DNA from: an uncultured Chloroflexia bacterium
Lineage (GTDB): Bacteria > Chloroflexota > Anaerolineae > CG2-30-64-16
Length of the DNA stretch: 64,000 nucleotides
Assembly (NCBI GenBank): GCA_963774265.1
Contig: CAVZDU010000007.1
Coordinates: forward strand, 96,001 to 160,000
Reading direction: 5' to 3'
Shown here: in pieces, positions 4,616 through 7,877 of the stretch
Numbering within the stretch: the first letter of the stretch is position 1
Layout of the letters: the number at the start of each line of letters is the position of its first letter
Made by a program: the position numbers and the translations under genes
The notes under the pieces: generated by a model
What the model saw: only the letters and a program-made list of their open reading frames with translations
What the model was told of the DNA's origin: nothing
Database searches by the model: none

Positions 4616-6007
4616 CTACACCAGCGGCTCGAACCGCGCCTGGAAGAAACGCAGATACTTCGGCTCGACCACCATCTTCAGCCCGCGCGTGCCCGCCCGC
4701 GCGTCGTAGACGGCCTTCACCGCCTCCGCGGTGACATCCATGTGCGCCTGGGTGTACACGCGGCGCGGGATGGTCAGGCGCACCAGCTCCAGCTTGGGCC
4801 GGTTGTGGTCGCCCGTCTGCGGGTTGCGGCCCGCGCTGACGATGCCACGCTCCATGGCGCGGATGCCGCTGTCAAGGTACAGCTCCGCGGCGAGGGTCTG
4901 CGCGGGGAACTCATCCTGCGGCATCTGTGGGTAGAACCGCTTCGCATCCAGAAAGATCGCGTGCCCTCCGATGGGCCGCACGATCGGCACATCCCAATCC
5001 GCCAATAGCTCGCCCAGGTAGCGCACCTGGCCGATGCGGGATCGCATGTGATCGTCCTGCACCTGTTCCTCGATCCCGATGGCCAGCGCCTCCATGTCGC
5101 GGCCGGCCATGCCGCCGTAGGTGTGCAGCCCCTCGAACACCACGACCCAGTTCGCCGCGATGTCATACACATCCTGGCTGTTCACCGCCAGCCAGCCGCC
5201 GATATTGACCAGGCTGTCCTTCTTCGCGCTCATCCATGCGCCGTCAGTATAGGAGCAGAACTCCTTGAGGATGGCTGCGATGGGCATATCCGCGTAGCCC
5301 GGCTCGCGTTCCTGGATGAAGAACGCGTTCTCCGCCATGCGCGTCGCGTCCAGGTAGAGCGCGATGCCGTACTTGTCGCACAGGCTTCGCACCGCGACCA
5401 CGTTCTCCATGCTGACGGGCTGCCCGCCGGCCATATTGACCGTGCCGGCCAGGCTGACGTAGCGCACCTTTTCCGCGCCCCAACGGTCGATCACGGCTTG
5501 CAGCTTCCCGAGGTCGACATTGCCCTTGAACGGGTGCTCGTTTTGCGGCTCGTGCGCTTCGTCGATGATAACGTCGACGAACGTGCCGCCCTGCAGCTCT
5601 TGATGGGCGCGCGTCGTGGTGAAGTACATGTTGCCGGGGATCACGTCGCCGGGCTGGATCAGCGCTCGGCTGATCAGATGCTCCGCGCCGCGGCCCTGGT
5701 GCGTGGGCACAACGTACTTGTACCCGTAGTATTTCCGGACGTTGGCTTCGAGATGGTAGAAGTTGCGGCTGCCGGCATACGCTTCATCGCCCAGCATGAG
5801 ACCGGCCCATTGGCGGTCGCTCATGGCGCTGGTGCCCGAGTCAGTAAGGAGGTCGATGTAGACATCCTCGGATTTGAGCAGGAAGGTGTTGTAGCCGGCG
5901 TCGCGGATGGCGCGCTCGCGCTCCGGCCGGGTGGTCATCTTGATGGGCTCGACCATCTTGATCTTCCACGGTTCTGCCCACGAGCGCCTGCCGAACTGCT
6001 GGCCCAT
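4616..6007 (-). CDS. tpl: tyrosine phenol-lyase (beta-eliminating lyase)
   Basis: DLLTDSGT, GNMYFTTTR, SAKKD PLP lysine, C-terminal LRFF-ARF (TPL-type rather than tryptophanase LRHF). True start may be ATG 6033, after an AAGGAG RBS, with a homopolymer error. Confidence 0.85.
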   Translation of the reverse strand: MGQQFGRRSWAEPWKIKMVEPIKMTTRPERERAIRDAGYNTFLLKSEDVYIDLLTDSGTSAMSDRQWAGLMLGDEAYAGSRNFYHLEANVRKYYGYKYVVPTHQGRGAEHLISRALIQPGDVIPGNMYFTTTRAHQELQGGTFVDVIIDEAHEPQNEHPFKGNVDLGKLQAVIDRWGAEKVRYVSLAGTVNMAGGQPVSMENVVAVRSLCDKYGIALYLDATRMAENAFFIQEREPGYADMPIAAILKEFCSYTDGAWMSAKKDSLVNIGGWLAVNSQDVYDIAANWVVVFEGLHTYGGMAGRDMEALAIGIEEQVQDDHMRSRIGQVRYLGELLADWDVPIVRPIGGHAIFLDAKRFYPQMPQDEFPAQTLAAELYLDSGIRAMERGIVSAGRNPQTGDHNRPKLELVRLTIPRRVYTQAHMDVTAEAVKAVYDARAGTRGLKMVVEPKYLRFFQARFEPLV

Positions 6008-6132
6008 GGTGCGGGGGTGTTCTCGTCGTTCATATTCGCTCCTTACGCCGTCGTAGGTGAGGACATGAGGATAGCAGGTGCAGCCCTGAGTGTGCAAATT
6101 GAAGATTGAAGATCAATCCGGACTCCGGTATC

Positions 6133-6162
6133 TTGCCGAAAAACCGCTTCGTGTGATAGAGT
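6133..6162 (+). promoter_or_regulatory. possible promoter of the tRNA gene
   Basis: TTGCCG-N18-TAGAGT about 14 nt before the tRNA 5' end. Confidence 0.35.
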
Positions 6163-6175
6163 GTTGAGGTGGTAA

Positions 6176-6543
6176 GGGCCCCTAGCTCAGCGGTTAGAGC
6201 GGCCGGCTCGTGACGGACGGTCCGTCAAGGGCTGCCCGGCGGGTGACTGCCGGGTGATTACCTGCCAAACTCGGGGAAGCCTAAGTCATTCTGGTATGGT
6301 GATCCCGAGCCAAGCCCCTTCACAGGGGAAGGTGTAGAGACTAGACGGCAGGCGCCCGACGGGGGCGGCATTAATCCGACCCCACAGGGTGAAGGGATAG
6401 TCCAGCCCACAAACTCGTTTCCGGTTGCGTCTGGGGTTTCCATCTTGTGTGGAGCTCCCCGGTCGAACGGGAGTCGCGGGGCGGCGAAAGCCGTAGTGGG
6501 AAGCATAACCGGTTGGTCCTGGGTTCGAATCCCGGGGGGCCCA
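6176..6543 (+). tRNA. tRNA-Ile2 (CAU anticodon, lysidine type); exons 6176-6208 and 6504-6543; CCA not encoded
   Basis: Joined exons give GGGCCCC-TA-GCTC-AGCGGTTA-GAGC-G-GCCGG-CT|CATAA-CCGGT-TGGTC-CTGGG-TTCGAAT-CCCGG-GGGGCCC-A, a full cloverleaf. G1-C72 pairing excludes initiator Met; the acceptor stem and CTCATAAC loop resemble Ile2. Confidence 0.88.
6209..6503 (+). ncRNA. self-splicing group I intron (IC3-like), 295 nt, no homing endonuclease ORF
   Basis: P1 with U6208.G wobble against IGS AGGGCT; P2 with GTGA tetraloop; P3 CCTGCC/GGCAGG; P element AAACTCGGGGAAGCC; Q element GATCCCGAGCCAAG; R element GTAGAGACTAGACGG; S element GAAGGGATAGTCC; GAAA-capped P9; terminal G6503. Confidence 0.93.
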
Positions 6544-6545
6544 CT

Positions 6546-6574
6546 AAAAGCGAAGCCGCCAGCGCTTCGTTTTT
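6546..6574 (+). terminator. intrinsic terminator after the tRNA
   Basis: AAAAGCGAAGC-CGCCAGC-GCTTCGTTTTT. Confidence 0.7.
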
Positions 6575-6590
6575 ATTTAAGGAGTCTTTG

Positions 6591-7877
6591 TTGAGCAAGA
6601 GTAAGGTTGCGATCCTGCGTACGTCGCCAGCCACTGTCCTGGCAGACTATCACCGGCTGCTGAACCTGGCAGGTTACCAGGACGTGGTGGCCAAGGACGC
6701 GGATACGGCGCTGAAGGTTAATATCTCCTGGCACTTTTTTTATCCCGGAAGCTCCACCACGCCGTGGCAGCTCGAGGGCGTGATCCGCGCGATGAAGGCG
6801 GACGGGTACGATCCGAACCTGATCCACGCGTGCCACAACCGCACAGTGGTTATTGATGCGCACCTGGGCGAGCGCGAGAACAAGCAGCTCAACGTGATCG
6901 AAGCACACGGGTTGCGCAACATCCACCTGTACGAGGGCGAGGAGTGGATCCCCGTCCGTGAGGCGGTGGGCGATTTGGCGAAGAAGTTCCTGGTGCTCAA
7001 TGACGTCTACCCCGATGGGTTTATGATCCCCAAGCGGTTCATCGGCGAGAACATCATCCATCTGCCCACGGTCAAGACGCACATCTTCACGACCACCACC
7101 GGCGCGATGAAGAACGCGTTCGGCGGGCTGCTCAACGAGCGGCGTCACTGGACGCACCCGGTGATCCACGAGACGCTGGTCGACCTGCTGATGATCCAGC
7201 AGAAAATCCACCGGGGCATCTTTGCGGTCATGGATGGTACCTTCGCGGGTGACGGGCCGGGCCCGCGCTGCATGCTCCCCTACGCGAAGAATGTGATCCT
7301 GGCCTCGGCCGACCAGGTGGCCATCGACGCGGTGGCCGCCAAGCTGATGGGCATGGATCCCCTGTCGATCAAGTTCATTCGCCTGGCACACGACCTGGGG
7401 CTGGGCTGCGGCGACCCGCGCGAGATCGAAATCGTCGGCGACCTGGATGCCGCGGCGGAGAATTGGCGCTTCGCCGGTCCGTTCAAGAAGATGACCTTCG
7501 CCTCGCGGATGCAACACAAGATTTATTGGGGCCCGCTGAAGAAGCCCGTCGAGTGGTCGCTGAAGACCGTGCTGGCGCCTTGGAGCTACCTGGCGTCCGT
7601 CGCGTATCACGACACTATCTGGTACCCGTTCGTCGGCGCGCCGCGGGTGAAGGCCGCGTTCCGCAGCGATTGGGGCCGGCTGTTTCGTAATTGGGAGACC
7701 GTACGGCCCGATCCACTCGGCCAGGGCTACCCCGATGTGGGCCGGGAAACGCTGGAGCTGCAGCGCTCAGGCTCGTCGGTCTTCTGGCGCTCGTTCGGCG
7801 TGTTGGGCACGGCGGTCAAAGAGGCGCCGGAGTTTGCGGCCAGCCGCCGCCGCGCGGCGGTCGAGCGAGGCAAGTGA
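6591..7877 (+). CDS. DUF362 domain protein
   Basis: LKVN, TTPWQLEG, LPTVKTH, TGAMKNAFG, DQVAIDA motifs; AAGGAG RBS before a TTG start. Confidence 0.8.
   Translation: MSKSKVAILRTSPATVLADYHRLLNLAGYQDVVAKDADTALKVNISWHFFYPGSSTTPWQLEGVIRAMKADGYDPNLIHACHNRTVVIDAHLGERENKQLNVIEAHGLRNIHLYEGEEWIPVREAVGDLAKKFLVLNDVYPDGFMIPKRFIGENIIHLPTVKTHIFTTTTGAMKNAFGGLLNERRHWTHPVIHETLVDLLMIQQKIHRGIFAVMDGTFAGDGPGPRCMLPYAKNVILASADQVAIDAVAAKLMGMDPLSIKFIRLAHDLGLGCGDPREIEIVGDLDAAAENWRFAGPFKKMTFASRMQHKIYWGPLKKPVEWSLKTVLAPWSYLASVAYHDTIWYPFVGAPRVKAAFRSDWGRLFRNWETVRPDPLGQGYPDVGRETLELQRSGSSVFWRSFGVLGTAVKEAPEFAASRRRAAVERGK

Follow-up and report, generated by a model that had tools for sequence, protein, structure and literature searches.

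The genome of an uncultured Chloroflexia bacterium contains a tRNA gene with the anticodon CAU that is split by 295 nucleotides (nt). This raises the question of which tRNA the gene encodes, what the insert is, and whether the reading of AUA codons in this organism depends on its removal. The gene lies at 6176–6543 of the window, by which we mean the whole 64,000-nt stretch analysed here (assembly GCA_963774265.1, contig CAVZDU010000007.1, positions 96,001 to 160,000 of the forward strand), and direct reading of the sequence places the insert at 6209–6503. We consider it probable, at roughly 0.88, that this locus is a tRNA-Ile2(CAU) gene, the only one detectable in the genome, and that an IC3-like group I intron splits it between U33 and C34. 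Throughout, G000 denotes this genome and G001 onwards its relatives, C the contigs of G000, and L the extracted loci.

Joining the two exons gives a regular cloverleaf with the anticodon loop CUCAUAA. Exon 1 supplies the acceptor strand GGGCCCC, the D arm, the anticodon-stem strand GCCGG, C32 and U33; exon 2 begins with C34 and comprises CAUAA, the stem strand CCGGU, a 5-nt variable loop, the T arm, the acceptor strand GGGGCCC and the discriminator A73, the CCA end not being encoded. Comparison of the locus by BLAST with 101 genomes (G000 and 100 relatives) returned a match in 83, and 30 loci were examined for their borders. Among these, the genes of 17 relatives carry an insertion at the same site (206, 237, 261–262, 290, 299–301, 343, 350–355 or 605 nt), and eight relatives have an uninterrupted Ile2 gene that in every case reads CUCAUAA; both halves of one of the latter, L023, are identical to the exons at 6176–6208 and 6504–6543. 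Because such intronless orthologues exist, L023 with identical exons among them, the insertion and the mature loop CUCAUAA are fixed. Comparison leaves the border ambiguous by one base, since intron and exon 2 both begin with C, and only the register U6208/C6209...G6503/C6504 provides both a U at position −1 and a G as the last intron base (omega-G), which sets the site at 33/34. All 18 Ile2-hosted introns that we extracted start with C and end with G. The preliminary description of this DNA had proposed both the interruption at 6209–6503 and the U33/C34 site; its coordinates proved exact, in agreement with the intronless orthologues, and the site is borne out by the register and by the C...G ends.

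The intron has been gained or lost within the family: in genus g15 it is present in G030 and G035 and absent in G021, and in genus g8 it is present in G026 and absent in G014, the state of G014 being read from abutting match coordinates. A different arrangement was seen in one relative (L018:597-846, from G018:C321), where an Ile2-type intron and an intact exon 2 directly follow a tRNA-Gly(UCC) gene, with no recognisable exon 1 at that locus; the gene could be broken or rearranged there, or the arrangement could be an artefact of assembly.

We next consider the nature of the insert. The Rfam model RF00028, which the preliminary description had named as a check, matches 6212–6420 over its full length (model positions 1–253) with 48.1 bits and an E value of 3e-11, or 7.5e-11 against the whole genome; the score falls short of the gathering score of 50. 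A survey of bacterial tRNA introns used cut-offs of 18–20 bits (Williams, 2020; bioRxiv 10.1101/2020.01.27.920355). A fold was drawn from the sequence of this intron, and its pairs were then counted on a MAFFT alignment of 23 related introns, 17 Ile2-hosted and 6 hosted by tRNA-fMet (L019 and L031, which contain long open reading frame (ORF) inserts, were left out). Standard pairs filled 95.5% of 1593 alignment cells (72 proposed pairs, 23 introns), as compared to only 37–48% in a slide control in which the 3' partners were moved by 1–3 columns. Both-sided changes occurred in 20 of the 72 pairs, and the observed covariation score was reached by none of 500 shuffles.

The helices and their pair counts are collected in Table 1. 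Most of the double changes sit in P2, P6a, P9a and the P1 extension; P3 shows one-sided variation in two of six pairs (U-A/U.G and C-G/U.G), and the pairs of the P9 closing helix vary among introns, being C-G, G-C, G.U or A-U. The P1 pairs U.G, C-G, G-C and G.U are invariant in all 23 introns. P7, presumably the guanosine-binding helix, forms a pseudoknot with P3. An energy-only fold of 6199–6513 (−149.3 kcal/mol, z = −3.2) recovers P1, the P1 extension, P2, P3, P4, P6a, P8 and the P9 domain. The P5 sequence CCUAAG...UAUGG is what we take to be an 11-nt tetraloop receptor, which would accept the GAAA loop of P9b. IC3 introns are compact and have a P2, and lack P2.1, P5abc and P7.1/7.2; the helices present here are P1 with its extension, P2, P3, P4, P5, P6, P7, P8 and P9 (a and b) only, in line with that pattern. 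The P1 with its U.G wobble, the P2–P9 pairings and the terminal G described at the outset were all recovered, and the fold is kept over the 23 introns.

The identity of the split tRNA was judged from its base pairs. The gene has G1-C72, G3-C70, C4-G69, C5-G68 and U12-A23 and is without the GGG/CCC anticodon stem. According to published discriminators (Silva, 2006; PMC1635315), Met and fMet, in which C3-G70 is usual, are excluded by G3, A3, C70 or T70; C4-G69/C5-G68 is typical of Ile(CAT), and A11-T24 and G12-C23 mark fMet. Because G3-C70, C4-G69 and C5-G68 fit these discriminators, the split tRNA is, by such rule-of-thumb positions, predicted to be Ile2. The assembly (5.5 Mb, 10 contigs, 84.19% complete) contains 50 tRNAs by ARAGORN, and the intronless CAU genes called are C9:102941-103014, which is Met-type with C3-G70 and an encoded CCA, and a degenerate look-alike at C9:114241-114310. 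The look-alike is 70 nt long, with D and anticodon arms as in elongator tRNA-Met and a mismatched acceptor stem, and is probably a pseudogene or a false call. ARAGORN found no tRNA-Ile(UAU) in the whole assembly, the sole Ile tRNA being GAU. Judged by these sequence features, the CAU set of the genome is one initiator (with an intron of its own, described below), one elongator Met and one Ile2. TilS is encoded (TIGR02432, 196.6 bits against a cut-off of 93.6), and ATA accounts for 2.35 per 1000 codons, or 5.2% of Ile codons, in 1738 long ORFs of high third-position GC content.

A second Ile2 copy was not found in the assembly: a short-word BLAST of the uninterrupted orthologue matched only the two halves at 6176–6543. 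Relatives G010, G033 and G036 (93–94% complete) likewise gave no match besides the intron-bearing gene, and G024 (98% complete) gave, in addition to that gene, just a 24-nt intron-like piece. The preliminary description had pointed out that C34 is the first base of the 3' exon, so that AUA decoding would depend on splicing were this the sole copy, and had suggested looking for an intronless one; in this 84% complete assembly the split gene is the only copy found and no intronless copy appeared.

From these features we propose the following course of maturation. Transcription would yield a single precursor that stops at the hairpin and T-run (6551–6574), and the intron would fold into P1–P9. 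The tRNA nucleotides 29–33 (CGGCU) would pair with the guide GGCUG, the U33.G wobble marking the 5' splice site, which would be attacked by free guanosine. The terminal G6503 would then occupy the same P7 binding site, and the exons would be joined to give the loop CUCAUAA. After end-processing and CCA addition, TilS would turn C34 to lysidine, and AUA would be read as isoleucine. We infer self-splicing of the Ile2 intron, its catalysis, the order of the maturation steps and lysidine formation at C34 of the spliced tRNA.

Several points weigh against our reading of the locus as a split Ile2 gene. The RF00028 match lies 1.9 bits below the Rfam gathering score, and its alignment misplaces P1, so that the U.G pair would fall within the intron, at 6221/6231. 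As one of the aligned introns served as the source of the structure, the slide control is biased in its favour; P7 and four of the six P1 pairs are invariant, that is, conserved without a covariation signal. P10 amounts to one base pair at best; the anticodon stem may help to hold the exons together, as in other tRNA introns. The assignment of the isotype followed published rule-of-thumb positions. A BLAST comparison with annotated E. coli tRNAs, tried as an isotype test, was discarded: the top 8 matches of the intronless orthologue were 'tRNA-Ile', but the Met-type control also gave 'tRNA-Ile' and 'tRNA-Thr', so that this comparison fails to separate the Ile2 and Met candidates. With the assembly 84% complete, an intronless Ile2 copy may be present elsewhere in the genome. 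Finally, the spliced 6208/6504 joint was not seen in four metatranscriptome contig sets, a joint that in a metagenome is indistinguishable from transcripts of intronless relatives. None of the public runs contained more than 12% of the sampled words, and the contigs of four RNA-library runs, matched at 88% likeness, are from relatives. Two RNA-library records, X17 and X18 (6376–6535, 14 differing letters), span the intron/exon 2 junction and could be precursor RNA or DNA carry-over.

Three other accounts of the locus were weighed against these data. The gene might be dead and its intron incompetent for splicing, its role being filled by an intronless Ile2 gene in the 16% of the genome that is unassembled. 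A completeness of 84.19%, splicing that was not observed and the relative whose intron and exon 2 (L018) lack a recognisable exon 1 would all suit such an account; it is, however, very unlikely given that intronless relatives have identical exons, that 18 Ile2-hosted copies preserve the ribozyme core, with compensatory changes, and that relatives which are 93–98% complete match at the intron-bearing gene alone. Were the interrupted tRNA an elongator tRNA-Met, with AUA read by other means, its anticodon CAU would be expected, and the E. coli BLAST does not separate the two non-initiator CAU tRNAs. Against this stand G3-C70, given in the discriminator study as excluding Met and fMet completely, and the Ile-typical C4-G69/C5-G68; moreover, the genome has a separate Met-type tRNA with C3-G70 and encoded CCA (C9:102941-103014) and a tilS gene, and neither a further Ile2 candidate nor a UAU tRNA turned up in it, which makes an elongator highly unlikely. 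ARAGORN itself, with introns allowed, calls the locus only as a tRNA-Thr(CGU) whose 295-nt intron follows position 36 and is shifted to the right by three bases (6212–6506). In that register the intron would end in U rather than G, and the product loop would be CUCGUAA, as compared to CUCAUAA in the eight intronless orthologues, which refute it; an ordinary tRNA-Thr(CGU) is present at C3:1566-1639, and we give the Thr reading practically no chance.

The split Ile2 gene is not the only interrupted CAU gene of this genome. With introns allowed, ARAGORN calls at C9:102438-102788 (L002:1366-1714) a CAU gene with a 277-nt insert directly before the anticodon, at 33/34. Its exons are of the initiator type (C1.A72, A11/G12, GGG/CCC anticodon stem), the insert matches RF00028 at 32.3 bits, and the gene lies ~150 nt upstream of the elongator tRNA-Met gene C9:102941-103014. 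The Ile2 and fMet host genes share the 11-nt GGCUCAUAACC (GGCU/CATAACC), the introns share the guide GGCUG, and the two cores are 71% identical (149/210 columns). A quick maximum-likelihood tree was built from 98 intron cores and 214 columns (one 101-nt core was dropped, and one locus was without the anchor). In this tree one branch separates 42 Ile2-hosted from 56 fMet-hosted cores, with a Shimodaira–Hasegawa-like approximate likelihood ratio test (SH-aLRT) value of 81.6, which is not strong. The intron at 6209–6503 groups with 41 other Ile2-hosted introns, and its host is without initiator features, which places it outside the fMet lineage; each intron of this genome has its nearest neighbours among introns from its own type of host tRNA.

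These relationships bear on a further account, in which the tRNA-fMet intron was recently copied within this genome to give the Ile2 intron. The two coexist in one genome, occupy the same site in their genes and use the same guide GGCUG, and their hosts share GGCUCAUAACC, as such copying would predict. The tree rejects it: introns group by host tRNA across phyla, and one host change explains the 98 rows. The endonuclease ORFs of long copies also differ between the two lineages. Because each intron is nearest to same-host introns and the cores are only 71% identical, recent copying is extremely unlikely. The tree instead points, with moderate support, to an Ile2-hosted intron lineage in several phyla that would be sister to the classical tRNA-fMet intron. 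One host switch would explain both lineages, since the host genes share GGCUCAUAACC and the introns share GGCUG.

The ORFs in question come from a set of long introns of 400–1000 nt, 15 of them fMet-hosted and seven Ile2-hosted. A sense-strand ORF of 131–179 amino acids (aa), alike by eye, is present in 14 of the 15 long fMet-hosted introns; the two tested (L055, L076) belong to PD-(D/E)XK (PF11645, 171–172 bits), and that of L076 matches PDB 2OST (E 4.9e-63), which we take to be I-Ssp6803I. The copy in L031 appears interrupted. By contrast, five of the seven long Ile2-hosted introns have in the P1 loop an antisense ORF of 123–145 aa, 61–68% identical between Anaerolineales and Saccharibacteria. 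The motifs CxxC...HH...N...CxxCH were read by eye in all five. Pfam HNH was matched by one of the three antisense ORFs scanned, at 19 bits against a cut-off of 21.4, and a profile of the five found no match among PDB sequences at E up to 1. Because this Pfam support is below threshold and comes from one of three ORFs, the label 'HNH-like' rests mainly on the by-eye motif. The intron at 6209–6503 is without such an ORF. We suggest tentatively, and with less than even confidence, that the Ile2-hosted 33/34 introns are an undescribed, old sister lineage of the fMet intron (in Chloroflexota, Saccharibacteria, Bacillota and Chthonomonadaceae) with its own antisense HNH-like endonuclease replacing PD-(D/E)XK, derived by one historic host switch, for example through reverse splicing.

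To see how widely such introns occur, species-representative public genomes were scanned with a 23-letter motif spanning the P9b loop, the intron end and CATAAC. The scan gave at least 120 stretches, and 80 loci were examined and classed by their exons. Initiator-type hosts make up 51 of the 80 (cyanobacteria including Trichodesmium, Nitrospirota, Bacteroidota, Chloroflexota, Acidobacteriota, candidate phyla and others), Ile2-type hosts 24, in at least four phylum-level groups (Table 1), and the remaining five (L083, L100, L048, L050, L097) lie outside tRNA genes. The cores of five Chloroflexota records are identical to those of relatives already counted, which also puts the genome studied here among the Anaerolineae-like Chloroflexota. 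Four introns of candidate phyla, taken as Ile2-hosted on account of a 4-nt variable loop, were rejected as such, their exons being initiator-like. Two of the loci outside tRNA genes, L083 and L100 from Paenibacillus, share downstream sequence and may represent a related intron in another kind of gene. Another locus, L080, comes from a betaproteobacterial metagenome-assembled genome (MAG) titled Janthinobacterium lividum; it has an Ile2 33/34 intron whose core groups with that of G076 (L019; SH-aLRT 96), and could reflect horizontal transfer or a misbinned contig.

The preliminary description had raised the possibility that Ile2 with a 33/34 intron was an unreported combination. With 24 of 80 sampled public loci carrying it, this was overstated: the intron is real but not rare, and the claim to novelty is weak. 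An Ile2 33/34 intron is named in no literature text found, including the accessible parts of PMC4033280, PMC11915505 and PMC3984707, and the string 'Ile2.2Ug' is absent from the literature searched; the 17 new settings of Williams (2020) may well include it. What may be modestly new is that the introns in Ile2 genes make up a lineage of their own next to that of the fMet introns, with a different endonuclease, and that both lineages occur in one genome.

Standard annotation would pass over the gene, as had been anticipated. Rfam at gathering thresholds has no match in the whole window, and ARAGORN without introns finds no tRNA there. The ORF at 6447–7877 does run over the 3' part of the tRNA gene, the longest call starting inside the intron; the downstream gene, whose product is a DUF362 protein, most likely starts at TTG 6591 behind AAGGAG. 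Upstream, on the opposite strand, lies a gene of the beta-eliminating lyase family (4616–6097). The hairpin and T-run at 6551–6574 are likely the intrinsic terminator of the tRNA gene, and a promoter scan of 5900–6800 found no sigma-70-like promoter. Four odd ARAGORN calls elsewhere in the assembly, namely a 92-nt 'tRNA-Pyl(cta)' (C1:1112899-1112990), an 80-nt tRNA-Arg(cct) (C1:157680-157759), a 96-nt tRNA-Thr(cgt) (C2:588897-588992) and one of undetermined anticodon (C7:428841-428926), look by eye like false positives inside other sequence. Genomes of this group seem to lack tRNA-Ile2, and often tRNA-fMet too, unless the tools used are intron-aware. In the accessible part of the tRNAscan-SE 2.0 report (PMC8450103), group I introns account for fMet or Ile2 genes missing from 36 genomes, and Ile2 introns are given for Acidovorax and Burkholderia, their site not being stated in that part.

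Table 1. Predicted features of the split tRNA gene, and related loci in other genomes. Positions are those of the window unless a locus label is given.
Feature	Position or loci	Strand	Basis or remark
tRNA-Ile2(CAU) exon 1, positions 1–33	6176..6208	+	identical to 5' half of intronless orthologue L023
Group I intron, 295 nt, IC3-like architecture, without ORF of its own	6209..6503	+	RF00028, pair counts, fold
tRNA-Ile2 exon 2, positions 34–73	6504..6543	+	identical to 3' half of L023
Terminal guanosine (omega-G)	6503..6503	+	G in 18/18 Ile2-hosted and 7/7 fMet-hosted introns
P1, 6204–6209 with guide 6229–6234	6204..6234	+	splice-site wobble U6208.G6230
P1 extension hairpin	6212–6226	+	both-sided changes in 3/6 pairs
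P2, 8 pairs, GNRA-type loop GUGA 6243–6246	6235..6254	+	both-sided changes in 5/8 pairs; 98.4% of cells paired
P3	6261..6266 with 6347..6352	+	100% of cells paired
P4 (6270–6275 with 6304–6309) enclosing P5 (6280–6299)	6270..6309	+	alignment pair counts
P6/P6a	6310..6332	+	P6a both-sided changes in 3/4 pairs; 100% of cells paired
P7, bulged A6338	6337..6342 with 6399..6403	+	all 5 pairs invariant, 23/23
P8, two helical segments	6353..6391	+	basal helix 100% paired, one pair changed on both sides
P9 domain, closing helix 6406–6410 with 6496–6500	6406..6500	+	alignment pair counts
P9a	6414–6417 with 6477–6480	+	both-sided changes in 3/4 pairs
P9b	6481–6494	+	GAAA loop 6486–6489
Hairpin 6551–6569, then T-run	6551..6574	+	hairpin from scan (scored on minus strand); T-run read from sequence
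Long fMet-hosted introns, many phyla	L031, L044, L051, L055, L057, L059, L069, L075, L076, L079, L088, L102, L108, L112, L116		
Antisense ORFs in long Ile2-hosted introns	L019:1640-2077, L060:4608-4979, L065:4344-4721, L099:5582-5953, L110:5609-5980		
Ile2-type loci	12 records titled Chloroflexota, Anaerolineae, Chloroflexia or Thermoflexales		
Ile2-type loci	5 Saccharibacteria and 1 further bacterium grouping with Saccharibacteria		
Ile2-type loci	3 Bacillota		
Ile2-type loci	2 Chthonomonadaceae		
Ile2-type loci	1 MAG titled Janthinobacterium		

Two tRNAs critical for translation, the initiator and the AUA reader, appear to be dependent on ribozyme self-splicing in this organism. If this is true, AUA decoding and the action of TilS would lie downstream of ribozyme catalysis in carriers without a second copy. 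Sister introns at one shared target, associated with different homing endonucleases, would offer a natural case for the study of how an intron changes its host gene, and the understanding of how group I introns work is left unchanged.

How, then, does the intron compare with known systems? Williams (2020) lists four classical settings of bacterial tRNA introns, Leu.3Ug, Arg.5Ug, fMet.2Ug (33/34) and Ile2.5Ug (36/37), all marked subgroup IC3, and adds 17 new settings, drawn from 5,292 introns that tFind yielded on 80,413 assemblies of bacteria and 1,028 of archaea. This list agrees with the background given at the outset, namely that the Azoarcus tRNA-Ile(CAU) intron lies 3' of the anticodon and that 33/34 is classically the fMet site. 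With the cyanobacterial-type fMet.2Ug intron the Ile2 intron shares the 33/34 site, the exon context GGCU/CAUAAC, the guide GGCUG and a homologous core; it differs in that the fMet host is the initiator tRNA, in that the host split of the tree separates it from the fMet introns, and in that 14 of 15 long fMet copies carry a sense ORF, PD-(D/E)XK in the two tested, whereas five of seven long Ile2 copies carry an antisense HNH-like one. The homing endonuclease I-Ssp6803I is carried by some copies of the cyanobacterial-type fMet intron. The intron at 6209–6503 resembles that of the Azoarcus type in being compact, with GNRA-type loops in L2 and L9 and a receptor-like motif in P5. The Azoarcus-type Ile2.5Ug intron has the same host isoacceptor and is of subgroup IC3, but it follows U36 (36/37), whereas the intron described here follows U33 and so stands outside that setting. 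Measured against the settings of Williams (2020) as a whole, it is the same kind of object built on the same logic, with regular tRNA exons, a U at position −1 and a G as the last intron base.

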